A DNA stretch of 64,000 nucleotides from Escherichia phage vB_EcoM_G53. The stretch lies in sequence record MK327943.1. One strand, written 5' to 3'. This document shows positions 9,407-43,529 of this stretch, piece after piece. Position 1 is the first letter of the stretch. The number at the start of each line of letters is the position of its first letter. Both the position numbers and the translations under genes were made by a program. Under the pieces are notes generated by a model, which saw only the letters and a list, made by a program, of their open reading frames with translations, had not been told where the DNA came from and ran no database searches.

Positions 9407-9478
9407 AAGTACCTCTTGGCTCAATTCATAGGTCTATTATATCATAATATTTAGAGACCTATCTTAAAGCACGAGATA

Positions 9479-9748
9479 CTATCGGAGCAAACAATAAGCC
9501 TGAAACACTTTTTCCATTAAACGTTTGAACTCATGGATATCGATATAAAGCTCAGTAAGACCGGCATTATAAAGAAAATCTAAAAAGTTCTCATGTGTTT
9601 CGTTATAGTCGCCTTCGTTTAATTGAGATACATGAGTTTCCCAAAAACCAACACCTTTAACGAATGGAAAATACGTGACTTTCATGTATTCGTCAACATA
9701 AAATTCGCCCAGCTTTTCTTCAGTTATACTGATTCGAGTTAATTTCAT
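9479..9748 (-). CDS. Hypothetical protein
   Basis: 89-aa ORF, tightly packed on the gene strand. Confidence 0.5.
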   Translation of the reverse strand: MKLTRISITEEKLGEFYVDEYMKVTYFPFVKGVGFWETHVSQLNEGDYNETHENFLDFLYNAGLTELYIDIHEFKRLMEKVFQAYCLLR

Positions 9749-9972
9749 TCTAGTTCCTTTGCTGCTTCAAGAGCAGCATCCAGCGAATCAAATTGGTCAA
9801 CGAAATCAATATTCAACGCATCGTCAACCGTAGCATATAACCACCATTGTTTGAATTCGTATTCTAGAATAAATCCAGGACCTTCAATCTGAGGAAGACC
9901 TAGACTATTTGTACCAACTTCGTAACCAGCTAGACGCAGGTCATTAATCAAAGTTTCTGTTAATACGCTCAT
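9745..9972 (-). CDS. Hypothetical protein
   Basis: 75-aa acidic ORF; stop overlaps next start. Confidence 0.5.
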   Translation of the reverse strand: MSVLTETLINDLRLAGYEVGTNSLGLPQIEGPGFILEYEFKQWWLYATVDDALNIDFVDQFDSLDAALEAAKELE

Positions 9973-10301
9973 TTTACCGCCTTAACAATTTTAAGGTCAA
10001 CGAATTTTTTCTTACGTTGATTTTTCATACGACGGATAGTCTTTTCAGAGATTTCATGTTTCTGATAAGCTTTAGATTCAACACCAAATGCAGCAACGTC
10101 AAATTCAGAAAGAATATATTGTACTAGAATTTCACGAATAGAATTACGTCCAATTTTCTGGTCGTGTTTTTGCATGATTTCATAAAGACGGAATTCCCAC
10201 GCATCAAGAACTTGAGGAGTAACAATATTGCCAGATTCCAGAAGAGCAACAACTTTATCGAAAGCGAAAGAATTAACTACGTTTTTGATTTTAGTAGACA
10301 T
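9969..10301 (-). CDS. Hypothetical protein
   Basis: 111 aa from MSTKIKNV with SD GAGGAAAATAAT; the track ORF extends 15 codons upstream without an SD. Confidence 0.55.
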   Translation of the reverse strand: MSTKIKNVVNSFAFDKVVALLESGNIVTPQVLDAWEFRLYEIMQKHDQKIGRNSIREILVQYILSEFDVAAFGVESKAYQKHEISEKTIRRMKNQRKKKFVDLKIVKAVK

Positions 10302-10332
10302 ATTATTTTCCTCGGTTATTTTATTATCCAAC

Positions 10333-10367
10333 GAGAGAATTATACTCATCTCTCAAGAGTTTGTATA
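10333..10367 (-). promoter_or_regulatory. Early-type promoter with inverted repeat around the -10 box
   Basis: Minus-sense GTATACA-17 nt-TATAAT; GAGAGA/TCTCTC inverted repeat brackets the -10; near-duplicate of the element at 38841-38875. Confidence 0.55.
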
Positions 10368-10607
10368 CTATTTTTTAAGCATGAAAAGTAAGTAATTTGT
10401 ATCACGTGGAGTAATATCAACACCCATATCAAAGATGCCTTTATAGATTGGGTATTTGTTTTCGGTTGTATCGAAGCTGAAACTATTTCCATCACAACTA
10501 ACAGTAATAGCATCTGTTAAAATGTCATACTCAATCCTAACAATTGAATCCCCAATTTTAACGTCGAGGTGTTTTTTGAATTTGATAAAATCTAATTCTT
10601 GGGCCAT
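10368..10607 (-). CDS. Hypothetical protein
   Basis: 79-aa ORF. Confidence 0.5.
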   Translation of the reverse strand: MAQELDFIKFKKHLDVKIGDSIVRIEYDILTDAITVSCDGNSFSFDTTENKYPIYKGIFDMGVDITPRDTNYLLFMLKK

Positions 10608-10670
10608 GATATTTTCCTCATTTTAAGACGATAGGAAGATAATAACATGTCTTCCTATCGTTGTACATTA

Positions 10671-10871
10671 TTAACCGAACTTTTTAGCGCCTTTCCAGCC
10701 TTCGTACATAACTGCACAAGTCAGTAGTACAGCGTGCTGGCATTCTTTGTATTTGTAAATCCAGAACCAGCGTAAGAAGTCTTCGTCCTCAACACCGTTG
10801 AGTTTCATATTGGCAAAGAATTCGGCACGTTCTTCACGAAGCTTTTGCGATAACATAGATTCAGGATTCAT
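10671..10871 (-). CDS. Hypothetical protein
   Basis: 66-aa ORF. Confidence 0.45.
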   Translation of the reverse strand: MNPESMLSQKLREERAEFFANMKLNGVEDEDFLRWFWIYKYKECQHAVLLTCAVMYEGWKGAKKFG

Positions 10872-11002
10872 TTTGTGTTCCAGGCCCCATTTTCATCGAT
10901 GAACTTAATCCAGTCATTTACAGACCATTTAGTTGTATCACCCTTTGGATTAACATTTAAAGTATATAATCCCTGCTTAAAAAGCATTCGTTTGATATTC
11001 AT
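10868..11002 (-). CDS. Small hypothetical protein (44 aa)
   Basis: Internal ATG with SD GAGGAAATT (MNIKRMLFKQGLYTLNVNPKGD...), chosen to avoid an 86-nt overlap with the upstream gene. Confidence 0.35.
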   Translation of the reverse strand: MNIKRMLFKQGLYTLNVNPKGDTTKWSVNDWIKFIDENGAWNTK

Positions 11003-11009
11003 AATTTCC

Positions 11010-11303
11010 TCAACTGTAACGATAACATTCGTTAGCTTTACGTTTGGCTTCAGTATGAGAAGTATTATAATCATACTCTTCTTTACTGTAAACATCTTTT
11101 TTCAACTTACGAACTTCTTTGCGGAGTTGTCGATTCATTTCGTTCTTGACTTCAGAATCAACGCCTTTCATACGTTTCCATTTATCTGAGCGGAAGATGT
11201 TTTCAACCATGTCTTTGTGGCTAACACCGTCAGGAGCTTTACGCTTACCAAAATAGTCGTAATCGCGAACTTTCAAATCTTTACGACGATATGTTTTACC
11301 CAT
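11010..11303 (-). CDS. Hypothetical basic protein
   Basis: 97 aa from MGKTYRRKDLKVRDYDYF with SD GAGG; lysine/arginine-rich. Confidence 0.5.
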   Translation of the reverse strand: MGKTYRRKDLKVRDYDYFGKRKAPDGVSHKDMVENIFRSDKWKRMKGVDSEVKNEMNRQLRKEVRKLKKDVYSKEEYDYNTSHTEAKRKANECYRYS

Positions 11304-11310
11304 AAGTACC

Positions 11311-11738: not shown

Positions 11739-11880
11739 TTTATTTTCCTCTATAGTAGATGGTTTAATCTTAACACATTTATTGAGGATGTAAACTGTTT
11801 TATGAAAATATTTTTTGATTTGAGAGGGGCACAAGGAGATAGTGAAGTGAAGATTCCAATGGATTATATTAGAAATGAGA

Positions 11881-11906
11881 TAAAGAAGACCAGGCGGCAC
11901 CTGGTC
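11881..11906 (-). terminator. Terminator-like hairpin GACCAGG-loop-CCTGGTC
   Basis: 7-bp GC-rich stem overlapping the stop codon of the glutaredoxin-like gene; followed by TTCTTTA on the minus strand. Confidence 0.45.
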
Positions 11907-12513: not shown

Positions 12514-12729
12514 TTAGGCCTTTTTATCAAGAATACGTTCGATGCGACGAGTAATTGATTCACAACGTGCTTTAAACTCGGCAGGCGGAAGTCCCTTTTC
12601 AGGAGAAATCGTTCCAATGATGTAGAACATTACTAATGCCGGAATTGTAACCACAGCACCGATGGCCAACAAAATAACCATCACAATAAATCCGAGTGTT
12701 TGTGCTACTGCTAATCGAAATTTATACAT
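12514..12729 (-). CDS. Hypothetical membrane protein
   Basis: 71 aa from MYKFRLAVAQTLGFIVMVILLAIGAVV...; one hydrophobic helix then basic tail; the start overlaps the stop of the upstream 41-aa ORF (TAATG). Confidence 0.45.
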   Translation of the reverse strand: MYKFRLAVAQTLGFIVMVILLAIGAVVTIPALVMFYIIGTISPEKGLPPAEFKARCESITRRIERILDKKA

Positions 12730-12730
12730 T

Positions 12731-12854
12731 AGAAAAAGTTCCCGTACATTGATGCAACAAAAAGCCATTGAGAAGGATACTCAAGGCCCATTAGACGAAC
12801 CGCATCGTTTACTGCTTCTTGTAATGCGTAGAACACATATCCGTAAAAATTCAT
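12731..12854 (-). CDS. Small hydrophobic ORF (41 aa) translationally coupled to gene 49
   Basis: ATG overlaps the gene 49 stop (ATGA); SD GAGGAAA 9 nt upstream; MNFYGYVFYALQEAVNDAVRLMGLEYPSQWLFVASMYGNFF. Confidence 0.4.
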
Positions 12855-13363: not shown

Positions 13364-13543
13364 TTAGTAAACGTTATAAAAGTCTCGATGAAAACGTTTA
13401 TACTGTCGAATCATTCTTTTAGTAGGACGTGTTACCGAAATGATTGAAGTCCTCATGTTTGGATTGTTTGGAGCCCCAATCATAATAAATTTCCAGGATT
13501 TTTGGCCGTTTGTTCTTTCGCCATAAAATAGTTCAGTTTTCAT
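13364..13543 (-). CDS. Small basic protein (59 aa), paralog of 13968-14138
   Basis: SD AAAGG; ...SIISVTRPTKRMIRQYKRFHRDFYNVY shares its C-terminal motif with the neighbouring small ORF. Confidence 0.45.
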   Translation of the reverse strand: MKTELFYGERTNGQKSWKFIMIGAPNNPNMRTSIISVTRPTKRMIRQYKRFHRDFYNVY

Positions 13544-13967: not shown

Positions 13968-14138
13968 TCAATATTCTCTATAAAAGTTACGATGAGAACG
14001 TTTAGCTTTGCGAAGCTGACGTTTAGTAGGACGAACTGTAAACGGTTGTCCAGAGAAAAAATTCGGATCGGTTTTAATAAGCAAATACCAATCATGCTTG
14101 CCATTTTTTAATAAACGGTACAATAATTTAACTTGCAT
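13968..14138 (-). CDS. Small basic protein (56 aa), paralog of 13364-13543
   Basis: MQVKLLYRLLKNGKHDWYLLIKTDPNFFSGQPFTVRPTKRQLRKAKRSHRNFYREY; early-type promoter GTTTACA-17-TATGAT lies just upstream. Confidence 0.45.
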   Translation of the reverse strand: MQVKLLYRLLKNGKHDWYLLIKTDPNFFSGQPFTVRPTKRQLRKAKRSHRNFYREY

Positions 14139-14266
14139 AATAATCTCTTCCCATCTCCATATCAATTAATTCATTTATTGAAGGTTCATCATAACACGTT
14201 TCTTCGTCGTTGTAAACTGTTTCGACGTCCGGCTCGACTGTCTCCCATCGAGCCGAATACCATGGC

Positions 14267-15604: not shown

Positions 15605-15909
15605 TATAATGTTCTCTCAAATTTGTGGAAGCATTTACGGCATTTCAATTTCAAGTTATCAGTGGTCCAGTTAACCAATTGGACTTGGATAGTTCCACAT
15701 TCCGGACACGGGTGTTTTGCTGCCGATTTGGCAGCATTTTCACGTCGTTCAACCATTTTCATTATTTCGTTCCATGCCGGAGGAACAAACTCTTCTTCAC
15801 CGTGGATTTTATCTCGCTGAACAAATTCAATCTTTGAACTATCGTCAATAAACTTAACCAAGCCATGATTAGTGCTCATATCAATATCCTCTAAAAGACG
15901 TAGTTTCAT
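15604..15909 (-). CDS. Hypothetical protein with C-terminal zinc ribbon
   Basis: 101 aa; CPECG...17 aa...CRKC four-Cys arrangement. Confidence 0.55.
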   Translation of the reverse strand: MKLRLLEDIDMSTNHGLVKFIDDSSKIEFVQRDKIHGEEEFVPPAWNEIMKMVERRENAAKSAAKHPCPECGTIQVQLVNWTTDNLKLKCRKCFHKFERTL

Positions 15910-16856
15910 TATAACACCTCAATGGCATTTCGTAAACCATCCGCTTTCGCATTCAGAGCTTTTAACGATTTAGTTTGTTCTGCAATCTGGGCTTCGACTT
16001 CTTTCAGACGAGATTTGAGATATTCGCGTTCTTCTCTTAAGTTATCAACTTTTTCTGCTTTAGGCTCTTTAATAGGCTTAGGCTTATACTCGTTAGGGTT
16101 CTTCAACTTAATTTGAATGCGAGAACTGTATAACATTGAACCATTATCTTCGGTTTCATCATACATTTCTACCACGTCCATGATTCTTAACATCATGCGA
16201 AGTTTATAAGACAGCGAACGAATGGTTTTATTGTGCTTCTTAATTTCTTCAGCTTTCATGGTGCCGAGATTACGCGAGTAATAATAAGGAACCTGAATAT
16301 CAATTGATAATGATGCGGTACCATTACCGGTTGGTTTGAACACTGCAGTAACCCAATCTTTAGCATGAACTGTATTTGTACGATCATCGCCGCCTGTGAA
16401 TAATTTACGAGAATGTTTAAAAAGCATATTCACTTGGTTATTGAATTCACAAGCAAATTTATCAGCAAATTTAGTTTCAGGAATGGTAGTTAACCAATCA
16501 GCCAAATGAGTCTTTTTAACATCATTAACAATAGTGAATTCAACCAAATCGGTTTTAGATGTCACAGATTTAATAAAGCTCGGCTTCATAAAGTTTTTAA
16601 TGTTATCGCGAGCTACAGTAGAAGATAATAAACGAGAACGTTTGAACCATTGAAGCAGCGTCCCTAATGAATGAGAATATGCATTTTGAGTATCTTTACA
16701 GATATGATTTTCTTGGCCTGTGTATGTAAGAAAATCACGAAGAATACTATAAACCACACCTTTATGTGGAACATCAGTCCAAGCACCAGTAGCACGTTGA
16801 GCGTGAGCGTTAGCGATAAGACCGGCAAAGTATTCAATGTAATGTGAACGTGTCAT
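15909..16856 (-). CDS. Lineage-specific hypothetical protein with C-terminal coiled coil (315 aa)
   Basis: Long ORF; the last ~50 aa are heptad-like (KVDNLREEREYLKSRLKEVEAQIAEQTKSLKALNAKADGL); preceded by a promoter cassette. Confidence 0.65.
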   Translation of the reverse strand: MTRSHYIEYFAGLIANAHAQRATGAWTDVPHKGVVYSILRDFLTYTGQENHICKDTQNAYSHSLGTLLQWFKRSRLLSSTVARDNIKNFMKPSFIKSVTSKTDLVEFTIVNDVKKTHLADWLTTIPETKFADKFACEFNNQVNMLFKHSRKLFTGGDDRTNTVHAKDWVTAVFKPTGNGTASLSIDIQVPYYYSRNLGTMKAEEIKKHNKTIRSLSYKLRMMLRIMDVVEMYDETEDNGSMLYSSRIQIKLKNPNEYKPKPIKEPKAEKVDNLREEREYLKSRLKEVEAQIAEQTKSLKALNAKADGLRNAIEVL

Positions 16857-16884: not shown

Positions 16885-16914
16885 ATTATACTCCAACCAT
16901 CCTTGGTTGTAAAC
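16885..16914 (-). promoter_or_regulatory. Early-type promoter cassette (GTTTACA-17-TATAAT) with inverted repeat in the spacer
   Basis: Minus-sense GTTTACAACCAAGGATGGTTGGAGTATAAT; CAACC/GGTTG inverted repeat; near-identical copy at 17905-17933. Confidence 0.6.
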
Positions 16915-16918
16915 TGAT

Positions 16919-17878
16919 TTATGATTTTAACGCATTCATTGCGTTAAAAAGTTTAGAATACTGCAACTGGAGATTCGTTACAACACTTTGAGCATCACGA
17001 AGCTTAGCTTGTGCTTTGTCAAGTTCAACAGACAGTTGGTCCATAGTGGCCTTGATTTGATTGTAATGGTAATCTTCGACCGGAAGAAGGTCATTAGAAA
17101 CATTTAGTTTTACTGCAGACAGTTTGCACACATTTGGCGAACCTTTAAACATTGATTTACCCGAAGTAGAATAAGCACTTAGGACTTCGGCCTGTTCAAT
17201 TGGGGTCCCAGTAAGCGATGCTTCAAACAATGCATTTTCCTTTTTAAGATTTTGATAATATTCGGAGTCTTTGTGCCACCATGGCGCCGGAACCTTTTTA
17301 CCAATAGATACACGAGCCTGGATAGCGATATGGCCCTTATTCTTGATAGGGTTGATAATATTAAGCTCACGAGAATAAATTGCTTTAATCTGGTGAATAT
17401 TATCACCTAAAACTTCCAATGCTTGGTGGAATACACGAGCAACATTATCATTCTTAGGTTTATACGTAAGAGTGAACTCATTCTCACTGATAACCATGAT
17501 TTCCAACTTATCGTAAGTATATTTCAAATGTTTCATGTTAATTGCTTGAGAACGAATACGAGAAGCAATGGCCATCAGATTGTTAAGGTTATTCCGGAAC
17601 TGCTTAGCGAAATATTGTCCTTCACCGCCAATACAAAAATTACGAAGTTTCTGTTTGGCCAATAAACGGCTGAACTCGCCATTTTTAATGAACTCTTTAA
17701 CGGGTGTGTTAGTAACGCATTCAAATTGAGTAAACTTACGAGAATTAATCCCATAATATGAACAGATTTCCTCAATCTCTTCAGGAGTCTTTACAGGCAT
17801 ACGGATAGGATTAGGTCCTGGAGTATATGCGTTCGAGGTAAATTCTTTGATAAGTTCTCTACGTGTAATAAAAGCCAT
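16919..17878 (-). CDS. Lineage-specific hypothetical protein with C-terminal coiled coil (319 aa)
   Basis: Long ORF ending in a coiled-coil-like segment (DQLSVELDKAQAKLRDAQSVVTNLQLQYSKL). Confidence 0.65.
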   Translation of the reverse strand: MAFITRRELIKEFTSNAYTPGPNPIRMPVKTPEEIEEICSYYGINSRKFTQFECVTNTPVKEFIKNGEFSRLLAKQKLRNFCIGGEGQYFAKQFRNNLNNLMAIASRIRSQAINMKHLKYTYDKLEIMVISENEFTLTYKPKNDNVARVFHQALEVLGDNIHQIKAIYSRELNIINPIKNKGHIAIQARVSIGKKVPAPWWHKDSEYYQNLKKENALFEASLTGTPIEQAEVLSAYSTSGKSMFKGSPNVCKLSAVKLNVSNDLLPVEDYHYNQIKATMDQLSVELDKAQAKLRDAQSVVTNLQLQYSKLFNAMNALKS

Positions 17879-17904: not shown

Positions 17905-17933
17905 ATTATACTCCAACCATCCTTGGTTGTACA
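17905..17933 (-). promoter_or_regulatory. Early-type promoter cassette, second copy
   Basis: ttatactccaaccatccttggttgtaca, identical to the 16885 copy except in the -35 region. Confidence 0.55.
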
Positions 17934-18929
17934 TCATTCCTTAAGAAGTTTTACTACTTGAATAAGATTAGCTCGTTCTGTTTTATTTTTACCGTTTAAG
18001 CCTGCTAATCGTGAGATTTCATCGTCAGTCTGTTGAATAGTTACATTAAGTTCGTTAATCAAAGCTTCAAAGTATTTGATTTGCTCAGCATGTTTTGATT
18101 CAAATTTCTGAACCGGAATAACGTCTTGGTTCAGTTCATCAATAAGGTCTTTAAGAGCATCTTCTTGGTTGATATCATATTCAACTTCTTTTATTTCTTC
18201 AACGAGCTCGTCTTTATATCTAACGTCTTTTAGTCCTGGAGCTGGTCCTGAAATCTCTTCTTTAAGAGTACAAACATACCCAATACGGTATCCAATGCCG
18301 TCTCGCTTGATATCAACTTCGTCGATAAATCCACAATGTTTAAGCCCGGAGCCGATTATGTCAAAATATCCTTGACGTCGTCCTTCAAACGTTACACGAA
18401 CTACTAAGACAGTTTTACCTGCAACCTTTTGAAGCTCACATTTATAAAAGTCAGTTGAACCTGAATAACGTGGATGAGTTTTAAAGTTCATCTGACGATC
18501 TAGGCCCATTTGTAAGCGTGCTGTTACGGCCATAAAACGTGTTTGGTTCTCGTTAAGATGAGCAACAATCCATTTCAAAGGCATTTTACACTGTTCACGG
18601 CCGAACAAATCAGTACGTCCTAGATTACGCAGGATGTTGTTAGAGTTAATCATCGACAGAACGTTAAGTTTATTCAGCGCGCTGAAGATTCCATCAGCCA
18701 TTGATTTTCCATAACCTTTACACGCTTTAATAAGTGCTCGCGGCAGATTAGTATAGATTTCAGACGGCATATGAAAATCAAATTTACTAGTCAGTAATTG
18801 ATGAACTTGGATAGCAATTTGCTCATAATTAAGTGCTCTGCGATCGTTATGGTCTTTAAACCATACTTTAATCTGTGAAGCACATAAACCGTTAATTTCA
18901 TGTTTTACCGCATCAGATGTAATGCTCAT
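17934..18929 (-). CDS. Lineage-specific hypothetical protein with C-terminal coiled coil (331 aa)
   Basis: Long ORF; C-terminal ~90 aa acidic and heptad-like. Confidence 0.65.
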   Translation of the reverse strand: MSITSDAVKHEINGLCASQIKVWFKDHNDRRALNYEQIAIQVHQLLTSKFDFHMPSEIYTNLPRALIKACKGYGKSMADGIFSALNKLNVLSMINSNNILRNLGRTDLFGREQCKMPLKWIVAHLNENQTRFMAVTARLQMGLDRQMNFKTHPRYSGSTDFYKCELQKVAGKTVLVVRVTFEGRRQGYFDIIGSGLKHCGFIDEVDIKRDGIGYRIGYVCTLKEEISGPAPGLKDVRYKDELVEEIKEVEYDINQEDALKDLIDELNQDVIPVQKFESKHAEQIKYFEALINELNVTIQQTDDEISRLAGLNGKNKTERANLIQVVKLLKE

Positions 18930-19519: not shown

Positions 19520-19577
19520 GTTTTACCTCCAGTAGTTGATAGGTCTATAATAACATAACCATAGACCTTGTAAACAA

Positions 19578-21005: not shown

Positions 21006-21069
21006 TTCGTTTCGATAGGTCTATAGTATCATATCCTAAAAGCATGTACACTACTTTTTAAAAATATTT

Positions 21070-21098
21070 TAACCCCCTAAAGGGACCCGAAGGTCCCC
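21070..21098 (-). terminator. Terminator-like hairpin GGGACC-loop-GGTCCC
   Basis: Minus-sense hairpin followed by TTTAGGGGGTTAAAATATTTTT, downstream of the 21103-21369 gene. Confidence 0.5.
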
Positions 21099-23688: not shown

Positions 23689-23707
23689 TTTGTTCTCCGT
23701 TTGTTTT

Positions 23708-23746
23708 GATAGGACTACTATAACATAGTCCTACCAAGATGTAAAC
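23708..23746 (-). promoter_or_regulatory. Early promoter / stem-loop cassette (GATAGGACT ... AGTCCTAC inverted repeat around the -10)
   Basis: gataggactactataacatagtcctac...gtaaac; minus-sense -35 GTTTAC and -10 TATAGT. Confidence 0.55.
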
Positions 23747-24139: not shown

Positions 24140-24205
24140 AACGTTCTCCTCTAGTAAGTAAGGTTTACTATAACACAACCTGAGGAGAAGTAAACTGATA
24201 GATGC

Positions 24206-24234
24206 CAAAAAGCCCCAACCATAAGGAAGGGGCT
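24206..24234 (-). terminator. Rho-independent terminator-like hairpin AGCCCC-12 nt-GGGGCT
   Basis: Minus-sense hairpin followed by TTTTTGG, downstream of the 24241-24543 gene. Confidence 0.55.
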
Positions 24235-24240
24235 AGTAAA

Positions 24241-27791: not shown

Positions 27792-27847
27792 TTTGATTTC
27801 TCCTCTAGTTGACAAGTCTATAGTAACACAACTAGAGGAGAAGTAAA

Positions 27848-30012: not shown

Positions 30013-30342
30013 TTATACTCTAGGCTTTTGAGCTTGTTTGGTATTGGATTCCCATGCGGCTTTGGTAATTTTGTTAGCGGCATAACCAAAGGCATTAGAT
30101 AGAACACCTTTAGAGTTGAATACATCCAATCCAATAAGTACACCGGCTGTGTTAAATTTAGGAGCAAAGTACGCATTAGTTTTAGAAAGAACTTTTTTCA
30201 ATTCAGGGTCTTGAACCAAGCCATCAAAAACGCCTTTACTATTTACTTTGTATGTTACTTTGGGATTTTTACCTTCTTCGATAGCAGCTTTCTGTTCCGC
30301 AGATAATGTAACTTCAGTGATAAACTCCTGATATGTTTTCAT
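30013..30342 (-). CDS. Internal protein (IP) candidate with capsid-targeting N-terminus
   Basis: 109 aa starting MKTYQEFITE, the conserved N-terminal capsid-targeting sequence of T4 internal proteins. Confidence 0.75.
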   Translation of the reverse strand: MKTYQEFITEVTLSAEQKAAIEEGKNPKVTYKVNSKGVFDGLVQDPELKKVLSKTNAYFAPKFNTAGVLIGLDVFNSKGVLSNAFGYAANKITKAAWESNTKQAQKPRV

Positions 30343-30367
30343 TTTGTTCCTATTGTTTTAATTTATG

Positions 30368-30682
30368 TTATTCTTTAGGGAAGTTTTTAGAGTATGCATC
30401 ATAAAGTTTATTACCAATACGACGGAAGACTTTAGCTGCAAAACGGTTTTCAGGGTTTTTAATCATGATTTGCATCATGTAAGTTCCTGCATCCGAAAGA
30501 GCTTCTTCATAGTACCCATTAATTTCTTTAAGAGTCCTACGTTTACCGCCAGGACCATCAACAGTAATTTTCCATTTACCTGTAGAAGTGCGGCTCGGTG
30601 GCTCAACTTGTTCAATCCAAATATAACCACCTTCAACGCGTTGGTTGGCGGATTCTGCAATAAATTCTTTATACGTTTTCAT
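30368..30682 (-). CDS. Internal protein (IP) candidate with capsid-targeting N-terminus
   Basis: 104 aa starting MKTYKEFIAE; body unrelated to the neighbouring IP. Confidence 0.75.
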   Translation of the reverse strand: MKTYKEFIAESANQRVEGGYIWIEQVEPPSRTSTGKWKITVDGPGGKRRTLKEINGYYEEALSDAGTYMMQIMIKNPENRFAAKVFRRIGNKLYDAYSKNFPKE

Positions 30683-30746
30683 TTTTTGTTTCCTTGTTTG
30701 TTTTGATAGAGTAATTATACCATATTAATACTTAAGCGTAAACAAT

Positions 30747-31427
30747 TTAAGCTTTACCGCCAGAAATAATTCCGAAGTTGTTAAAATCGTATCCAATATC
30801 GTCAACATCTACTTTAGGGCTTGCTACAACATAAGCAATTTCACTACGTTTTGCATAGGTGTTGATTTCTTTACCATCGCCACCTAAGAAAGAATACCCA
30901 TTACGTTTTAATGAGCCAAAGTCTTCCGCATCACCAATGAAAGCTTTAACTTTAAATTTGGGGTCTTTGGCATCTGCTTCAATGATAAATTCTTGATACA
31001 TTTTCATTTTTTCCTTAGTAAATTGATTACCATAGTATTTGTACCAAGTCGGACGTTGAGCAATTTTTTCATCTAAGCGTGCTTGACTTATCGCAATGGA
31101 CGCTTCGGACGGGACGTAATTATTACGAAATTCGGCAGGAATGTCGGAAATATCCTGGACAGTCGTGTCCTTGATTTTGAAACCGCGTTTCAAGCATTCA
31201 GCGATTAGCTCGATTTGTCGTAAACGTAAAAATTCGAGTTTGTCGTAAAAGAATGTTACGTGACCTGTGCCTAAGATAAATGTTGGAGAGATTTTAAAAT
31301 CCTTTACACGTTTACCGTTTTGAACATGTTTACGGACTGCACCAAATACGCGTGGTAATTCACGATACTCAGCCATAAGATGTTGGTCGGACAGTTCAGA
31401 AACAAGTGTTAAATTGATACGAGTCAT
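30747..31427 (-). CDS. denV: Endonuclease V (DenV, pyrimidine-dimer glycosylase) with an in-frame C-terminal extension that is an IP-like ORF
   Basis: First ~140 aa [34 protein letters not shown]... match T4 DenV; the frame then continues with no stop through [18 protein letters not shown]... to 30747. An internal ATG at 31007 has SD TAAGGAAAAA. Confidence 0.8.
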
Positions 31428-31485
31428 AATTTCCTCCAAGTAGTTGATGAATGTATAGTATCAAAACCCTTGGAGGAAGTAAACA

Positions 31486-31767
31486 CTATTTTTCTGAAGC
31501 GCCTGAAATATATTTTTCAAGACGTTGTTTCATTAGCGAGCCGTTCTTAGCGATTTCTTCCGGTTTATCGCACATACGTAACAAGGCTTCAAGCTTAGCG
31601 ATATCGCTGGTACGTTCAAATTTGCGAGTATCTATTTTACTAGCAAGTTCAGAAATACGTGCTAATAGACTTTCAGCTTCAACCAAAGCTGCACCTAGCT
31701 TAGTTGCAAATGTGTCGGTAGCTTCGTTAAGAATAGATTCTGATAAAAATTCACTATATGTTTTCAT
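31486..31767 (-). CDS. Internal protein (IP) candidate with capsid-targeting N-terminus
   Basis: 93 aa starting [10 protein letters not shown]; ATG overlaps the lysozyme stop (ATGA). Confidence 0.7.
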
Positions 31768-32745: not shown

Positions 32746-32971
32746 CTCGGTCCCATGATTTGGCCATTAATTCGGACATAAATTCTTCAATGCGCGTTTC
32801 TTTAGATGGACTTTCACTATTAGAGACCGCAAGTTTGTAATCTGCAATAGGACAGAACATATCAAGGTCCATATTAAGGTCGTCTTTGATTTTTTCTTCT
32901 GACACATCTTTATCGTATGTGTACAGATAACTATCACATGATTCTGATTTAATGTAAATTGCTATACTCAT
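32735..32971 (-). CDS. Hypothetical acidic protein
   Basis: 78 aa from MSIAIYIKSESCD; start overlaps the upstream stop. Confidence 0.5.
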   Translation of the reverse strand: MSIAIYIKSESCDSYLYTYDKDVSEEKIKDDLNMDLDMFCPIADYKLAVSNSESPSKETRIEEFMSELMAKSWDRDDE

Positions 32972-34440: not shown

Positions 34441-34498
34441 AATATTCTCCTCATGTTTTAATAGGACTACTATAATATAGCCCTATCAGTTTGTACAC

Positions 34499-34699
34499 TT
34501 ATTTTGACATTTCTTCGATGTCACGACGATACCCATCACGAACTTCACGAAGAGCTTCAAGGCCACACATAGGCTCGATACCAGTAATGTGAACTTGATT
34601 AATCTGATACTCTACATCTTCTAACTGAGCGAAAACATAACGACGTTCTGCTGCACAACCAGGTTTAGCTTTACCGAAACGTTTATTCAAAGTAGTCAT
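34499..34699 (-). CDS. Hypothetical protein
   Basis: 66 aa from MTTLNKRFGKAKPG with SD GGAG. Confidence 0.45.
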   Translation of the reverse strand: MTTLNKRFGKAKPGCAAERRYVFAQLEDVEYQINQVHITGIEPMCGLEALREVRDGYRRDIEEMSK

Positions 34700-34779
34700 T
34701 TTTATATCTCCATTCACTCATTTGTTTTGATAGGTCTATAGTATCAACAACTACAGACCTTGTAAACTGTTTTGCGAAA

Positions 34780-36023: not shown

Positions 36024-36062
36024 GATAGGACTACTATAACATAGCCCTATCTTGTTGTAAAC
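36024..36062 (-). promoter_or_regulatory. Early promoter / stem-loop cassette
   Basis: gataggactactataacatagccctatc...gtaaac; minus-sense -35 GTTTAC, -10 TATAGT. Confidence 0.55.
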
Positions 36063-36861: not shown

Positions 36862-37217
36862 TTTCTACATTCCTTAATAAAGTTTTCGATTGTTTCATTT
36901 TCACGTTTAGCTAGAAGTTCATTATAACTAATCATTTGAGAAGCGTAAATCTTTTTATTTTTCTTGTTATGGTTTATAAAATCGTAGTAAAAATAGACTA
37001 CAGTACAAAATGATGCGATGGATGCAAAGGCTTGGGTATACCGTAAGTCCTGCCATTGGTCTGTGAATCCACCAGTGTTCCCTATAAATCCTAACACAAC
37101 GCCGTCAATAAGAAATCCAACTAATCCAAAGGCAAATCCCATGCCAATACTCATAATAAAAATTAGAATGTTCTCACCAAGAGAAGGCCATACGGTTAAG
37201 AGTTGAGGCTTTTGCAT
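36858..37217 (-). CDS. Hypothetical membrane protein ending in the FIKECR junction motif
   Basis: 119 aa; three hydrophobic segments; C-terminus ...ETIENFIKECRK. Confidence 0.55.
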   Translation of the reverse strand: MQKPQLLTVWPSLGENILIFIMSIGMGFAFGLVGFLIDGVVLGFIGNTGGFTDQWQDLRYTQAFASIASFCTVVYFYYDFINHNKKNKKIYASQMISYNELLAKRENETIENFIKECRK

Positions 37218-38180: not shown

Positions 38181-38203
38181 CAAAAGGAGGACCGGAGTCC
38201 TCC
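38181..38203 (-). terminator. Terminator-like hairpin GGAGGAC-CGGA-GTCCTCC (T-runs on both strands)
   Basis: Minus-sense hairpin followed by TTTTGG; plus-sense followed by GTATTATTTTATTT. Confidence 0.55.
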
Positions 38204-38805: not shown

Positions 38806-38840
38806 ATTATTACCTTTCAATTGGTGGTTTATTATCCAAT

Positions 38841-38875
38841 GAGAGCATTATACTCTGCTCTCAAGAGTTTGTAAA
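38841..38875 (-). promoter_or_regulatory. Early-type promoter with inverted repeat bracketing the -10 box
   Basis: Minus-sense TTTACA-17-TATAAT; GAGAGCA/TGCTCTC inverted repeat; near-duplicate of 10333-10367. Confidence 0.55.
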
Positions 38876-39103
38876 TTATTTTTTAATCAAATTGACATAA
38901 AACTTGGCGTCTTCTGGGTGCATGCCTTCGCAGTATTCTTCAACCATGAACTTCTTAACAGCTTCATAAGGACCACTCAGATTAAGCTCAGTTGTCCAGA
39001 ACTTGGAATCTTGGGCTGAATCGATATGAACTTCAGGGTGACGGTTGCGAATAACTTCTTCTGTGTATTCATAATCAACGACATCAATACTAACTTTAGC
39101 CAT
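38876..39103 (-). CDS. Hypothetical acidic protein
   Basis: 75-aa ORF. Confidence 0.5.
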   Translation of the reverse strand: MAKVSIDVVDYEYTEEVIRNRHPEVHIDSAQDSKFWTTELNLSGPYEAVKKFMVEEYCEGMHPEDAKFYVNLIKK

Positions 39104-39164
39104 TTTGTTTTCCTCTCATTTGATTTGATAGGTCTATAGTAACACCGTCCTTGGTGTTTGTACA

Positions 39165-39668
39165 TCATTTATTTTTAATTTTGCAAATTTTTCCAGCTTC
39201 AATGCACGCAGCATAGATGATGCTCTGGGCAATTTTATTGCTAGTGGACCTTGCAATCACACTAAGAACAATTTCTTTTTCTTCACCACCACATCCCCAG
39301 CTATTTTGCCCATGTGTACCTTTAACTACGGCTGAAACTTCAACAGAACGTCCACCATCAGAAGTCTTAACATCCACAACCCAATCACCGTCTTTCTCAT
39401 TAACCTGTGGTTTATCCCAAGAAATACTAATATATGATTCACCGTCAATAGAAGTCGCCGGGTTTTTCTCTACAGTAAGACCTTCGCTTTCTAACCATTC
39501 AATAGTATTTGAGCATAAATCTGTAGAACATCTCATCGGAAAGCGGCATGATTTTTCACCTTTAGATGCAGCATCATACATCTTTTCCAAAATACGCTTT
39601 TGTACATTTTTAAAAACAACGTCACGCGATTCTTCAGATTTTTTATTCAGTTCAGTATAAAGACTCAT
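39165..39668 (-). CDS. Hypothetical protein (167 aa)
   Basis: ORF with several Cys (CRFPMRCSTDLC). Confidence 0.55.
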   Translation of the reverse strand: MSLYTELNKKSEESRDVVFKNVQKRILEKMYDAASKGEKSCRFPMRCSTDLCSNTIEWLESEGLTVEKNPATSIDGESYISISWDKPQVNEKDGDWVVDVKTSDGGRSVEVSAVVKGTHGQNSWGCGGEEKEIVLSVIARSTSNKIAQSIIYAACIEAGKICKIKNK

Positions 39669-39805
39669 AATGTTTTCCTCATTTGTTTTGATAGGTCTAT
39701 AGTATCATACCTCAAGGAGAAGTAAACAACTTTGTGAAAAATTTATCTGCCCTAGATGCCCGAAAGCCCCTTCCTATGGTTGGGGCTTAAGTGATTGTAA
39801 CTTAA

Positions 39806-40432
39806 TTATTTACGGGTTTTTGCATACTGAGCAGCGTCAGCAGCCAAACGACCTGCTTGTCGAAGTTTTTCTTTAATCTCATCATGAAGTGGTTGAGTAT
39901 ACTTCAAACCTTCGATAGTCAAATAAAGACGATAAAGGTCTGGGGTATCAAGGTTGTTGATATGTTGGCCATTACGAAGAATATTGAATTCACGAACGAG
40001 TGAAGACGTATCAGATTCAATATCACGAACAAGCGAAGATAGTTGTTTATATTTTTTTTCCAGGCTAGAAGTATCAAACTTAAGAGCAGGAGCTTTAGGA
40101 GTTGCTTTTACTTCCGGCTTAGGCTCAGGTTTTGCTACTGCTTTAGGGGTCGCAGGTTTAGGAGTGGTAGGAGCAGGTTTCACTTTAGGCGAACCAGATT
40201 TAGCAGAAACACCACCACTAACAATATCTTTGAATGCTTTAGAAGCTCTGTAATATTCTTTTTGGCTGGAAGTGTCGATACCGTACATGGCTTGAACGTT
40301 TTTGAAAAACTCTGTACTAGTTTTTGTACCAGAAATAGCATCGTAAGCAGCTTGCCATTTCTCTTTTGTCATACGTACACCGGCTTCGGTGATTACTTCC
40401 GTTTCGGCTAAAAATTCATTAAAAGTATACAT
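39806..40432 (-). CDS. Internal protein I-like protein (divergent capsid-targeting N-terminus, Pro/Lys-rich linker)
   Basis: 208 aa starting MYTFNEFLAETE; middle PKVKPAPTTPKPATPKAVAKPEPKPEVKATPKAPA; sits immediately downstream of the tRNA region, as ipI does in T4. Confidence 0.6.
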   Translation of the reverse strand: MYTFNEFLAETEVITEAGVRMTKEKWQAAYDAISGTKTSTEFFKNVQAMYGIDTSSQKEYYRASKAFKDIVSGGVSAKSGSPKVKPAPTTPKPATPKAVAKPEPKPEVKATPKAPALKFDTSSLEKKYKQLSSLVRDIESDTSSLVREFNILRNGQHINNLDTPDLYRLYLTIEGLKYTQPLHDEIKEKLRQAGRLAADAAQYAKTRK

Positions 40433-40467
40433 TGATGGTCCTTAGAAAGTAGGTTTATTGTTTACTA

Positions 40468-40475
40468 TATTTATA
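40468..40475 (-). promoter_or_regulatory. Late promoter TATAAATA upstream of the ipI-like gene
   Basis: Minus-sense TGTATAAATATAG about 35 nt upstream of the start; SD TAAGGA. Confidence 0.5.
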
Positions 40476-40505
40476 CAAAAAAGCCCCGACCTTTCGGAAG
40501 GGGCT
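40476..40505 (-). terminator. Rho-independent terminator-like hairpin AGCCCC-12 nt-GGGGCT followed by T6
   Basis: Minus-sense AGCCCCTTCCGAAAGGTCGGGGCTTTTTTG; terminates transcripts reading through the tRNA region. Confidence 0.6.
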
Positions 40506-40807
40506 ATATACCTTGTCGGGGTCCCACCTGCTAAGGCAAGTGTTTGTACGAAACGCCGGGATTCGAACCCGGTTATTAAGCAGTTGACGCTACTCAATAT
40601 TTTTAAAAGGCCATATCTCGACCATATCCGAACGTTCCGTCAAAAACGCTACTCGGCTTACGACAAAGATATTTCCTCGAATCGATAATTCTGTGCGCCG
40701 TTTCTGCTGTGATGTAAGGGGATATTAACAAATCGTAAAGATTTATTAAGACCAGTCCTTACTCAGGGAACATCAGTCCGACGTCTTGCCGGTAGCGACC
40801 CGGCTTC

Positions 40808-41327: not shown

Positions 41328-41406
41328 TAAATAACTTTCTATTATGAAAGGCACTTTAGAGCACCTTTGGTAATAGAGGGTATGAATTAATAATAACACA
41401 TAATTC

Positions 41407-41922: not shown

Positions 41923-41926
41923 TTAC

Positions 41927-42217
41927 TCACCGTACCATATTAATGTAATTATATTCAATGCAACATAATTTCAAAGGATTCTTGAAAATATCATATTCAA
42001 GAGGACCTTTTTCTGTTTCAATAAAGAAATCAAAGTTAACTGTGTTAAATTTATCGTCTTCACAGAGTAATTTAACTTGCGAAGATGAACGGTCGATATA
42101 AACCTTTTCAACCTCAAAGTTAGTCAGAATACCGTAGTCGTCGACTAGTGCTTTAGCTGCACGTTGATCGCTTTCATATCCATTCTCAACGGATTTTACC
42201 TTAGCATAAAGAATCAT
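41927..42217 (-). CDS. Hypothetical protein
   Basis: 96-aa ORF. Confidence 0.5.
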   Translation of the reverse strand: MILYAKVKSVENGYESDQRAAKALVDDYGILTNFEVEKVYIDRSSSQVKLLCEDDKFNTVNFDFFIETEKGPLEYDIFKNPLKLCCIEYNYINMVR

Positions 42218-42576
42218 GAATGTTCCACCATTTCAAAGGTATGAGCATCAACAATATGATACCAGTCAAAATTTTCTTCTGCGTTTTTATAAATTTCGCG
42301 AAGAGCCTCAACAGTTTTTCCTGTAGCAACAAGGTCGTCAATACCACCAAGAGGATAACAGTCATAACCAGCAAACAGAAGGAAATTAATAGTTTCTGTA
42401 GGTTCTGGATGCAGAACTCCGTTATCGTCTACCACTTCAAAGAAAGTGTAAGAAGGAGTACAAGTTTTAATCCAGGCCCATGCTTGAGCTGCTGAATCAA
42501 ACGGATTACGGAATAAACGACAATCTGGGTCTTTAGAAGGATTTGCTTCAAAATCCGCATATATGTGATATTTCAT
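42214..42576 (-). CDS. Hypothetical protein
   Basis: 120 aa from MKYHIYADFEANPS with SD AAGGTGA. Confidence 0.5.
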   Translation of the reverse strand: MKYHIYADFEANPSKDPDCRLFRNPFDSAAQAWAWIKTCTPSYTFFEVVDDNGVLHPEPTETINFLLFAGYDCYPLGGIDDLVATGKTVEALREIYKNAEENFDWYHIVDAHTFEMVEHS

Positions 42577-42577
42577 T

Positions 42578-42763
42578 TTACTCACCTTTTGCAATTTTAT
42601 CCATAACGATAGCGATTAAGCCGATTAGAAATGCTACTACCAATGAGATAGAATTTTCTGTTGTTGACAGTAGTCCACAAATGAATCCTACAAACATCGA
42701 AAAACTAAAAGCCATTGAAGCAATTACTACAGCAACATTACGAATCAGTTCAGCGCGTTTCAT
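42578..42763 (-). CDS. Small membrane protein
   Basis: 61 aa from MKRAELIRNVAVVIASMAFSFSMFVGFICGLL with SD GGAG; two hydrophobic helices. Confidence 0.5.
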   Translation of the reverse strand: MKRAELIRNVAVVIASMAFSFSMFVGFICGLLSTTENSISLVVAFLIGLIAIVMDKIAKGE

Positions 42764-42791
42764 TTTATTTCTCCATTTACTCATTTGATTT

Positions 42792-42830
42792 GATAGGACT
42801 ACTATAACATAGTCCTATCATCATGTAAAC
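42792..42830 (-). promoter_or_regulatory. Early promoter / stem-loop cassette (perfect 9-bp inverted repeat around the -10)
   Basis: gataggactactataacatagtcctatc...gtaaac; minus-sense GTTTACA-17-TATAGT. Confidence 0.6.
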
Positions 42831-42832
42831 TA

Positions 42833-43096
42833 TTAAATTCCAGCTTCGCGTTTAACATAATCGACATAAGCTTGGATAGCTTTCTTGCTGGTAATTTTTA
42901 CCTGGCCACGACCATTGCCTTCTTTAGAGTTTTTCTTAACAACTACATTACCATCTTTAACACCCCATACATGGACATAAGTACCGATGTTTCGGTCGTA
43001 GAACATTGCATGGTCGTTGTTGTAAGAGAATGATTCGTAGTTCTCCGACAGAGTAGAAGATTGAGATTCAGCGATAAATTCTTTATACGTTTTCAT
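42833..43096 (-). CDS. Internal protein (IP) candidate with capsid-targeting N-terminus
   Basis: 87 aa starting MKTYKEFIAESQ. Confidence 0.75.
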   Translation of the reverse strand: MKTYKEFIAESQSSTLSENYESFSYNNDHAMFYDRNIGTYVHVWGVKDGNVVVKKNSKEGNGRGQVKITSKKAIQAYVDYVKREAGI

Positions 43097-43122
43097 TTGT
43101 TTTTCCGTTTGGTTGTTGATTT

Positions 43123-43161
43123 GATAGGACTACTATAACATAGTCCTATCTGCATGTAAAC
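43123..43161 (-). promoter_or_regulatory. Early promoter / stem-loop cassette
   Basis: Identical core to the 42792 copy (gataggactactataacatagtcctatc). Confidence 0.6.
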
Positions 43162-43164
43162 TAC

Positions 43165-43452
43165 TTACAGAAGAGTTTTTGCAATAATTTTAAGCTGAGC
43201 TACAGAAATATGCTTAGCTTTAAACAGTGCGGTCTCTTCAGCCGGAGAGATAACAATAGTAGCGCCATCTTTCTTAGCAGACCATCCATCCCCTAAGTAA
43301 ACAGTACCTTTTACTTCTTCGCCATCAACCAGACTAATCATCGGTTTACCCTCACGTCCTTTATTTGCTTTAATAACTTCGGAAGTAAGGGTTGCTTCGG
43401 TCAGAGTAGAAACGTTAGCAACAGGTGATATAAATTCTTTATAGGTTTTCAT
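43165..43452 (-). CDS. Internal protein (IP) candidate with capsid-targeting N-terminus
   Basis: 95 aa starting MKTYKEFISPVANVSTLTEA. Confidence 0.7.
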   Translation of the reverse strand: MKTYKEFISPVANVSTLTEATLTSEVIKANKGREGKPMISLVDGEEVKGTVYLGDGWSAKKDGATIVISPAEETALFKAKHISVAQLKIIAKTLL

Positions 43453-43529
43453 TTTATTTCCTTGAGGTTGTTTATTTGATAGGATGATAGTAACACACCA
43501 TCATCCTTATGTAAACTGTTTTGTGAAAA

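Follow-up and report, generated by a model that had tools for sequence, protein, structure and literature searches.

The DNA analysed here, referred to as the window, is the whole 64,000-nt stretch (64 kb) of Escherichia phage vB_EcoM_G53 (sequence record MK327943.1). Its early region is punctuated on the minus strand by cassettes that combine an early-promoter motif with an inverted repeat. By megablast, the window is T-even phage DNA, ~98% identical to Shigella phage JK45 and 95–98% identical to the Mosigvirus isolates NBG1, AV111, and AlbertHofmann; T4 itself aligns to it in patches only. The JK45 annotation transferred onto the window, which provides the gene positions, shows minus-strand genes from 1 to ~46,970, in the order regA, 44, and 45, then 55, endonuclease VII, nrdC, tk, regB, denV, e, the tRNAs, and the internal proteins, then 57, 1, 3, and 2. 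The baseplate and tail genes come after ~46,970 on the plus strand. On the basis of this gene layout, the cassettes sit in the classical early "hyperplastic" part of a T4-type genome. The database records of the relatives (NC_054940, MH243438, OR352941, and MZ501047) carry conflicting genera, Tequatrovirus for JK45, the closest relative, and Mosigvirus for equally close ones; therefore, the genus label of the phage is ambiguous in the databases.

The promoter component was modelled with a two-block weight matrix, in which an UP/−35 block and an extended −10/start block are separated by a spacer of 16–19 nt; the matrix was built from crude seeds by iterative refinement. A preliminary description of this DNA had listed 23 copies of a minus-strand promoter. 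All 23 sites were inspected on that strand, and all 23 are recovered as composite −35/−10 sites, so that the claim of more than 20 copies stands. Twenty-two of them score 21.9–49.5 bits; the exception is the weak site upstream of gene 55 at 9425, which reaches 8.2 bits and has no good −35. At a score of at least 14 bits, the matrix finds 26 sites on the minus strand, all of them in 9–47 kb, whereas the plus strand has none along its full 64 kb; the plus-strand baseplate/tail block (47–64 kb) is thus empty. The score distribution is bimodal. Four further promoter-like sites beyond the earlier list (11093–11064, 15937–15908, 32959–32930, and 36950–36921) lie mostly in coding sequence.

The matrix was trained on the window itself, and untrained patterns were added as a control. 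GTTTAC-N17/18-TAHWRT has 15 matches, all on the minus strand, versus 0.45 expected; TTAC-N17/18-TAYWRT-N5-TAT has 10 versus 0.12; and GTTTAC-N16-18-TATAAT has 4 versus 0.09. A generic σ70 scan (TTGACA/TATAAT) is uninformative, with 74 and 70 matches versus 68 and 61 expected, which is chance level. The signal is a T-even-specific composite, not a generic σ70 motif. In addition, a repeat search that uses no promoter model finds the cassettes as families of direct repeats (10 copies of 53 nt, 5 of 59 nt, and 3 of 89 nt), with 86–94% identity between cassette pairs within the families.

The consensus of the matrix is TTTCAAAAAATA-GTTTAC-N17/18-(TG)TATAAT/TATAGT/TACTAT-AGACCTATCAAA, with an A-rich sequence upstream of the −35. 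The hexamers noted previously are confirmed, with the amendments that the spacer is 17 or 18 nt rather than 17 nt and that TACTAT also occurs as −10. The consensus TTTCAAAAAATAGTTTAC...TGTGTTATAATAGACCTATC fits the published description of T4-type early promoters (Pe), which precede early genes and have GTTTAC, an upstream A-rich stretch, TGn, and a −10 with A-11 and T-7; by definition, Pe are used by the unmodified host RNA polymerase directly after infection. It also agrees with the early consensus of T4 and RB69, in which GTTTAC lies at −36 to −31, an A-rich segment at −40 to −44, and a C-rich segment at −3 to −1 (PMC1524935; PMC2988021). A literature search by title and abstract did not find a genome-wide T4 start-site map. 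The GenBank record of T4 carries no promoter features, and T4 sites were therefore predicted with the window-trained matrix; such sites precede the orthologous genes mobD.2, nrdC.8, nrdC.10, nrdC.4, and 55.6.

The sites are far from equally frequent in coding and non-coding sequence: 21 of 26 are centred in non-coding DNA, which makes up 10% of 9–47 kb (p = 5e-17). The end of the site lies 27–42 nt upstream of the downstream ATG in 20 of 26 sites, as expected of cassettes that precede small open reading frames (ORFs), and 24 of 89 gene starts carry a cassette.

An inverted repeat of 6–14 bp, with one arm in the spacer, is embedded in 19 of the 23 listed sites. The inverted repeat of the earlier description is thus present in these 19, in three geometries, and absent from the other four (14195, 21015, 30700, and 39690). 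Three of the four (14195, 21015, and 39690) have a separate stem-loop upstream of the −35. In class A, the arms bracket the −10 (12 sites: 9425, 10333, 10620, 19540, 23708, 34460, 34725, 36024, 38841, 42792, 43123, and 43480); counted from the first base of the hexamer, the left arm spans ~−17 to −4 and the right arm ~+5 to +16. In class B, the spacer arm pairs with the Shine–Dalgarno (SD) region (4 sites: 11780 before the 55.6 homologue, 24160 before a 59-aa ORF, 27810 before regB, and 31440 before denV). In class C, the hairpin lies wholly inside the spacer (3 sites: 16885, 17905, and 39115); the CAACC...GGTTG type of the preliminary description belongs here and hence does not lie around the −10. 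The fold z-score of the region from −75 to +8 is ≤−2 at 12 of 27 cassettes. Rfam over 9–47 kb returns two tRNAs only and no family matching the cassette hairpin. The sites are listed below (score in bits; z, fold z-score); in the text, each is cited by one coordinate within or beside its interval.

9430–9469, minus strand: weak, atypical promoter-like site of class A upstream of the gene 55 homologue; 8.2 bits, poor −35; −10 TATAAT at 9436–9441; arms ATAGGTCT/AGACCTAT, loop 19; z = 0.06.
10333–10368, minus strand: class A cassette, GAGAGA/TCTCTC, arms at 10349–10354 and 10333–10338; 21.9 bits.
10628–10668, minus strand: class A cassette, 12-bp arms ACGATAGGAAGA/TCTTCCTATCGT; 32.0 bits; z = −3.56.
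11052–11093, minus strand: promoter-like site inside coding sequence, beyond the earlier list; 18.9 bits; 7-bp repeat; T4 counterpart at T4 41261.
11746–11795, minus strand: class B cassette upstream of the 55.6 homologue; spacer TCCTCAATA pairs with TATAGAGGA (SD), 8 of 9 arm positions pairing; 36.5 bits; predicted SD accessibility 0.48 of the own-transcript value.
14174–14257, minus strand: early promoter in coding sequence, no embedded repeat; 29.0 bits; 11-bp stem-loop just upstream (14228–14257), to which its z of −3.0 is due.
15908–15937, minus strand: promoter-like site at a gene end, beyond the earlier list, no repeat; 18.7 bits; exact GTTTAC-N18-TATAAT.
16885–16949, minus strand: class C cassette, CAACCAaggaTGGTTG in the spacer; 36.6 bits; z = −3.38; 10-bp upstream stem-loop at 16925–16949.
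17905–17934, minus strand: class C cassette with the same hairpin (CAACCAaggaTGGTTG) as the 16914 cassette, to which it is 94% identical over 36 nt (repeat family D14); 29.2 bits.
19541–19575, minus strand: class A cassette, AGGTCTAT/ATAGACCT, upstream of the nrdC.8 homologue; 43.1 bits; z = −2.03.
21011–21087, minus strand: early promoter, no embedded repeat; 44.6 bits; terminator-like hairpin just upstream (21071–21087).
23706–23746, minus strand: class A cassette, TTGGTAGGACTA/TAGTCCTATCAA with one G·T, upstream of the mobD.2 homologue; 43.6 bits; z = −4.07.
24144–24235, minus strand: class B cassette, TTCTCCTC/GAGGAGAA over the SD of a 59-aa ORF; 29.3 bits; upstream of it, at 24202–24235, a G+C-rich stem-loop followed by a T run (UUUUU; repeat family D15).
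27798–27848, minus strand: class B cassette, 14-bp arms TTCTCCTCTAGTTG/CAACTAGAGGAGAA over the SD of regB, the downstream gene encoding the RegB homologue; 42.9 bits.
30702–30743, minus strand: early promoter, no repeat, before the internal-protein-like gene 30368–30682; 31.3 bits; breakpoint at 30745, where a 728-bp insertion (compared with JK45) has its upstream edge.
31431–31484, minus strand: class B cassette, 10-bp arms TTCCTCCAAG/CTTGGAGGAA over the SD of denV; 28.0 bits; SD accessibility ratio 0.48.
32930–32959, minus strand: promoter-like site in a 78-aa ORF, beyond the earlier list; 24.3 bits; the ORF is missing in AlbertHofmann (breakpoint 32968).
34459–34498, minus strand: class A cassette, TGATAGGGCTA/TAGTCCTATTA with two G·T; 36.8 bits; z = −3.76; downstream partner of an indel.
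34732–34767, minus strand: class A cassette, AGGTCTGTAGT/ACTATAGACCT with one G·T; 45.5 bits; z = −2.67; upstream partner of the 34499–34699 indel.
36024–36062, minus strand: class A cassette, GATAGGGCTA/TAGTCCTATC with one G·T; 49.5 bits; z = −3.78.
36921–36950, minus strand: promoter-like site in coding sequence, beyond the earlier list, no repeat; 19.5 bits; z = +1.17.
38840–38876, minus strand: class A cassette, TGAGAGCA/TGCTCTCA; 29.6 bits; z = −1.65.
39124–39165, minus strand: class C cassette, AACACCaaggacGGTGTT; 41.4 bits; JK45 has two cassettes and a 55-aa ORF here.
39687–39727, minus strand: early promoter, no convincing embedded repeat; 45.3 bits; z = +0.74; G+C-rich hairpin upstream.
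42791–42830, minus strand: class A cassette, TGATAGGACTA/TAGTCCTATCA; 46.9 bits; z = −4.95; downstream partner of the 42833–43096 indel.
43123–43161, minus strand: class A cassette, GATAGGACTA/TAGTCCTATC; 47.7 bits; z = −3.73; upstream partner of the 42833–43096 indel.
43481–43516, minus strand: class A cassette, AGGATGATGGT/ACTATCATCCT; 48.0 bits; z = −3.30.

The right arm of class A, CCTATC, is conserved even where the left arm is missing (21051, 39165, and 39727), and is hence a promoter feature in its own right. Therefore, we tested whether the consensus alone yields stems. If it did, the elements would be ordinary early promoters, and the repeats would be without function, arising because the consensus is partly palindromic or by chance in AT-rich DNA, a reading with which the failure of about half of the cassettes to fold better than shuffles is consistent. 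Promoters from the window, the four relatives, 22 kb of T4, and IMG/VR loci obtained in two pattern scans were pooled into 359 non-redundant sequences. The first IMG/VR pattern (GTTTAC-N14/15-TGTTATAGT) gave mostly chance matches in unrelated contigs; the second, which includes CCTATC, is much more specific. Class A stems scoring ≥8 occur in 74 of the 359 sequences, versus 11.7 ± 2.8 (maximum 20) when spacers and start regions are re-paired at random; a smaller first set of 152 sequences gave 38 stems versus 5.4 ± 2.1. Re-pairing thus removes most stems.

The arms also change together. Among 31 in-register stems, changes occur on both sides at 8 of 10 pairs, and the covariation score is 0.416, compared with 0.207 after shuffling and 0.04–0.12 with the partner slid; since these 31 were chosen for having a stem, only the covariation measures count, not the percentage paired. 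Compensatory changes can be read directly from related copies. The cassette at 10368 (GAGAGA/TCTCTC) and its paralogue at 38876 (GAGAGC/GCTCTC) differ by a change from A-T to C-G (repeat family D10), and GGACTA/TAGTCC compares with GGAAGA/TCTTCC (10668). GGGCTA/TAGCCC is found in an IMG/VR locus, and the G·T intermediate GGGCTA/TAGTCC at 36062 and 34498. At one orthologous position, the pair is A-T in JK45, G·T in the window (23746), and G-C in NBG1.

Orthologous promoters of T4 and the window keep a stem in the same register although its sequence is unrelated. The T4 mobD.2 promoter has a 14-bp stem, AGTTGACAAGATTA/TAATCTTGTCAACT, in the register of TTGGTAGGACTA/TAGTCCTATCAA at 23746, the encoded orthologues being identical at 22 of 34 residues. 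Similarly, the T4 nrdC.4 promoter carries CCACAaggaTGTGG where the window (16885 cassette) carries CAACCAaggaTGGTTG. The loss of stems on re-pairing, the compensatory changes, and the conserved register already disfavour the by-product reading, to which we attach hardly any probability.

The type of hairpin, as opposed to its presence, can apparently change between orthologues. In the T4 nrdC.8 promoter (T4 53943), the spacer pairs with the SD (GTTCCTC/GAGGAAC), and the window counterpart at 19575 has a class A stem across the −10.

The mismatches within stems indicate which strand folds. A score that penalizes every mismatch equally identified 80 distinct class A stems; strand-symmetric mutation predicts equal numbers of G·T and A·C among their mismatches. 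Internally, they contain 19 G·T/T·G, 3 A·C/C·A, and 6 other mismatches (p = 4e-4, a generous value because the 80 stems are not phylogenetically independent, but the direction is clear). The permutation test, the compensatory changes, and the excess of G·T over A·C show that selection maintains the complementarity of the arms, acting on the sense strand alone. This favours the sense transcript as the folding molecule; the non-template DNA strand is a less simple option. The G·T bias on one strand therefore argues against both an operator recognized as a duplex and a cruciform.

The operator reading holds that the palindrome over the −10 is bound by a dimeric DNA-binding protein, such as a factor that shuts off T4 early promoters. 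Repressor operators classically lie over the −10, where this repeat is centred, GATAGG...CCTATC is common to the most frequent arms, and the mechanism of early-transcription shut-off is stated to be unknown (PMC2988021). However, the arms are very diverse (GATAGGACTA, GAGAGCA, AGGATGAT, AGGTCTAT, TAGGGTCA, and, in T4, AGTTGACAAGATTA), the register shifts between cassettes, and classes B and C are not centred on the −10. In addition, tolerance of G·T mismatches alone, on one strand, fits a folded single strand and not duplex recognition. We regard an operator as highly improbable.

The preliminary description also connected the cassettes with modular shuffling, and three indels with a hybrid cassette at the junction bear this out. 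In the first event, a 66-aa ORF (34499–34699) lies between the cassettes at 34767 and 34498; AV111 and AlbertHofmann have a single cassette composed of the upstream half of 34767 and the downstream half of 34498 (junction 34486|34761). In the second event, an internal-protein-like gene (42833–43096) lies between the cassettes at 43161 and 42830 (junction 42835|43116); NBG1 and AV111 have one hybrid cassette, and the alignments overlap by 52 bp. AlbertHofmann has the same breakpoint and overlap according to the alignment, the junction sequence itself having been inspected in NBG1 and AV111. In the third event, a 55-aa ORF of JK45 is flanked by two cassettes; the window has a single hybrid cassette there (39165), and the alignments overlap by 48 bp. 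These three events are decisive as cassette-to-cassette gene swaps that leave a hybrid cassette. A 728-bp insertion relative to JK45 at 30016|30745 was also considered and was rejected as such an event, as the JK45 junction has no hybrid cassette.

Megablast chains against JK45, NBG1, AV111, and AlbertHofmann give 33 distinct breakpoints. When the cassette footprint is taken from 45 nt below the −10 to 45 nt above the −35, the footprints cover 8.2% of 9–47 kb and contain 11 of the 33 breakpoints (p = 4e-5), an excess that is modest against the gene-junction background, given that 24 of 89 gene starts carry a cassette. Indels with one edge at a cassette are found at 21084, 27858, 32968, and 39770, and indels without a cassette at either end at nrdG/nrdD, 13366|13553, 25773|25978, and 28408|29297.

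Junctions inside cassettes would also be expected if the repeats acted in DNA, as cruciforms or single-strand hairpins that aid promoter opening or that attract nucleases (endonuclease VII or gp46/47) and so form recombination hot spots; the window encodes endonuclease VII and SbcCD-like gp46/47. However, arms of 6–14 bp with 8-nt loops are short for cruciform extrusion. A cruciform needs both strands paired, yet G·T is tolerated, which leaves A·C on the other strand. Moreover, plain homology between cassettes suffices for the hybrid junctions, and some indels have no cassette at either end. We consider a role in DNA structure improbable, if slightly less so than an operator.

The elements of the window are, in all likelihood, host-σ70 early promoters of a T-even phage, in cassettes of ~60–100 bp of the published promoter early stem-loop (PeSL) type. 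This type of element, named in the preliminary description, is indeed the one defined in the literature (PMC2839356, PMC4122927), and the earlier reading is supported, as an element type already known and published in 2010 and 2014. A PeSL combines a strong σ70-type early promoter, preceded by AT-rich sequence, with a stem-loop that contains G-T pairs and lies mostly between the boxes or across the −10 (PMC2839356). Five positional subclasses of the stem-loop are distinguished. The copies run up to the SD and ATG of small ORFs, are concentrated in hyperplastic regions, and do not occur in virion modules (Arbiol 2010, PMC2839356; Comeau 2014, PMC4122927). The copies recombine, inserting or deleting ORFs and giving encapsidated mini-circles; one RB49 stem-loop lowers lacZ expression like a strong terminator, and attenuation was proposed (PMC2839356). 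The PeSLs of PST and T4 are described as TTTACW-N17-TAYWAT with stems AGNA-loop-TCNT, and the internal-protein locus is involved, citing Repoila 1994 (Comeau 2014, PMC4122927). At the sequence level, the window elements show every tested feature of the type: a promoter motif, a stem-loop, placement in intergenic DNA before small ORFs, dispersed repetition, and presence or absence with a chimeric copy.

The window elements resemble the PeSLs of RB49 and phi1: both have an early promoter of the strong σ70 type with AT-rich sequence upstream, finish at the SD and ATG of a small ORF, form clusters of dozens of copies in variable regions, and flank ORFs that some close relatives have and others lack. 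The RB49 and phi1 elements differ in their near-perfect TTGACA-N17-TATAAT and stems of G(n)-loop-C(n), whereas the window has GTTTAC as −35, mostly TATAGT or TACTAT as −10, and A/T-richer stems of varied sequence. Terminator activity and mini-circles are experimental findings in RB49 and phi1 only. The PST/T4 elements belong to the same phage group and share the TTTACW −35 and the 17-nt spacer; they too are associated with indels, among them those of the internal-protein locus. The window also has stems of the AGNA...TNCT kind (TAGGACTA/TAGTCCTA, GAGAGCA/TGCTCTC, and AGGATGAT/ATCATCCT). However, the legend for PST/T4 places the stems just upstream of the promoter, whereas those of the window are mostly embedded (12 across the −10, 3 in the spacer, and 4 reaching the SD), with a separate upstream stem-loop in a minority of cassettes only; in addition, the commonest −10 of the window, TATAGT, falls outside TAYWAT. 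The promoter component shares with T4 Pe the UP element, GTTTAC, TGn, the −10, and extra conserved positions at the start (PMC2988021, PMC1524935), but Pe is described as a linear consensus, and an embedded, co-varying hairpin is not part of its definition.

To judge from the sequence and from what is known of T4, each cassette would initiate immediate-early transcription of one ORF or a few ORFs that follow it. Its parts are, in order, an A-rich UP region, the −35 GTTTAC, a spacer of 17 or 18 nt, the extended −10 (TG)TAtagT, and the start region CCTATC, ending in a short A-rich leader with the SD of a small ORF. In 19 of the 23 listed sites, the spacer is complementary to the start-site region (class A), to the ribosome-binding site (class B), or to another part of the spacer itself (class C). 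If transcription starts 6–8 nt past the −10, as in T4, the class A arms span, relative to the start site, roughly −29 to −16 and −7 to +5, and in every hairpin the 5′ arm precedes that site. Therefore, by its geometry, the hairpin would exist only in transcripts that arrive from an upstream promoter, and the transcript of the cassette itself would lack it. The fixed geometry of class A may reflect that the −35 and −10 boxes are unusable as arms and that the UP region and the upstream stop codon fill the 5′ side; a hairpin placed after +1 would sit in the cassette's own transcript as well, which might account for the placement. Since the pairing selected is that of the sense strand and only read-through RNA would contain the hairpin, it is there that the hairpin most probably acts. 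It would mark or restrain transcripts coming from upstream, attenuation being the proposal of the PeSL authors, and in class B it would additionally cover the ribosome-binding site. Because the cassettes resemble each other, homologous recombination between two of them deletes or inserts the ORF between and leaves one complete hybrid cassette, as the three events above show.

Several observations weigh against this reading. An embedded repeat is missing from four of the 23 sites, and the fold z-scores are unremarkable in about half of the cassettes. The hairpins of class A are followed by AAAACAAA or AAATCAAA, without a U-tract, and the ratio of predicted SD/AUG accessibility between read-through and own-promoter RNA is ~1 for class A. 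The G·T statistic comes from related stems, the breakpoint excess is modest, and some indels lack a cassette. For this phage, promoter activity, start sites, and the effect of the hairpin are what we infer.

Like intrinsic terminators, the embedded hairpins are predicted stable structures in intergenic gaps of a co-directional array. Such terminators, defined by a G+C-rich hairpin directly followed by a U run, have true examples upstream of cassettes at 21071–21087 (cassette 21051) and 24202–24235 (cassette 24195), as separate hairpins. Unlike them, the class A hairpins do not show this layout, the embedded hairpins lack a 3′ U-tract, and none was flagged in a terminator scan. Therefore, the label "terminator" is not supported by sequence for the embedded hairpins. 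Pausing, or protection of 3′ ends after leader cleavage, are alternatives to attenuation for classes A and C.

Alternatively, the hairpins could be general translational masks, as in T4 e, soc, 49, and I-TevI, so that translation of a gene would need a transcript initiated within the hairpin. T4 provides documented cases (PMC3014915), and four cassettes have the corresponding layout, with arms of 8–14 bp over the SD and the 5′ arm in the spacer (11795, 24195, 27848 at regB, and 31484 at denV). Predicted SD/AUG accessibility is lower there in read-through RNA (ratio 0.48–0.84). In both systems, the ribosome-binding site would be paired in the long transcript and an internal promoter would give a short transcript without the 5′ arm; in e, soc, 49, and I-TevI, however, the internal promoter is late, the long transcript early, and expression delayed, whereas the internal promoter of class B is early. 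The 12 class A and 3 class C hairpins end 8–12 nt or more upstream of the SD and do not alter its predicted accessibility. A general masking role was therefore rejected for classes A and C and can hold for class B only; as an account of the elements as a whole, we think it unlikely.

The ribosome-binding sites of regB (27798–27848) and denV (31431–31484) are complementary over 14 and 10 bp, respectively, to the spacer of their own early promoter; masking would be confined to read-through RNA. GGAG, the motif cleaved by RegB, is part of the regB arm.

More tentatively, though with a somewhat better chance than general masking, the hairpin might tag the origin of a message: each cistron would occur in a hairpin-free RNA from its own promoter and in a hairpin-bearing read-through RNA, and the phage would treat the two differently. 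The treatment could be a block of the ribosome-binding site in class B, pausing or attenuation of RNA polymerase, or a protective 3′ hairpin on the upstream message once RegB or RNase E has cleaved within the A-rich leader or at a GGAG SD. If so, a mechanism known from four T4 genes (e, soc, 49, and I-TevI) would extend to dozens of early cassettes, and recombination would be a side-effect and not the reason for which the elements are kept.

The additions made here to the published PeSL description are modest: the inventory of three classes, selection on the sense strand, a hairpin predicted in read-through RNA only, cassettes that pair with the SD at regB and denV, and three explicit gene swaps. 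The map of early transcription in T-even phages is determined by these cassettes, which also help to explain the gain and loss of small accessory genes among close relatives, including those of internal head proteins that counter host defences. Of practical value are an accurate list of early promoters and the three documented cassette-to-cassette swaps, while the covariation and the one-strand G·T bias point to a hairpin that works in read-through RNA and not as a DNA signal.

Seven genes in the window start with the capsid-targeting motif of internal proteins, MK(T/M)Y(K/Q/S)EF(I/L) in six and MYTFNEFL in one:

30013–30342, minus strand: internal-protein-motif gene.
30368–30682, minus strand: internal-protein-motif gene.
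30747–31007, minus strand: internal-protein-motif gene.
31486–31767, minus strand: internal-protein-motif gene.
39806–40432, minus strand: internal-protein-motif gene.
42833–43096, minus strand: internal-protein-motif gene.
43165–43452, minus strand: internal-protein-motif gene.

The conserved 5′ coding sequence of these genes, which encodes the N-terminal targeting sequence, is itself a dispersed repeat (families D3 and D6), and at least one indel, that against AV111 at 30351|30660, has its edges in this repeat and not in a promoter. The G+C-rich terminator hairpins at 24202–24235 and 40473–40506 are near-identical (82% over 34 nt), with a further one at ~39760–39780. Hairpins at ~39770 and 40455–40506 flank a 208-aa internal-protein-like ORF; JK45, AV111, and AlbertHofmann have an unrelated ORF in its place, and NBG1 lacks it. 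Therefore, terminators too may serve as swap points. Two other G+C-rich hairpins, at 11888–11906 and 38186–38203, are terminator-like on both strands, and thus possible bidirectional terminators, inside the co-directional early array.

The genes nrdG and nrdD, encoding anaerobic ribonucleotide reductase, are missing at 12534–12849 and present in all four close relatives (2.6–3.6 kb, in JK45 with an I-TevII intron). In their place, a 316-bp segment with a divergent 55.8-like small ORF, ~77% identical to Dhakavirus phages, adjoins endonuclease VII. No promoter cassette lies at either edge of this segment, and no phage record among those searched spans at least 80% of the junction query. Finally, a 55-nt direct repeat (13375–13429 and 13979–14033, 76% identity), unrelated to the cassettes, lies in or next to two small ORFs that flank pin.

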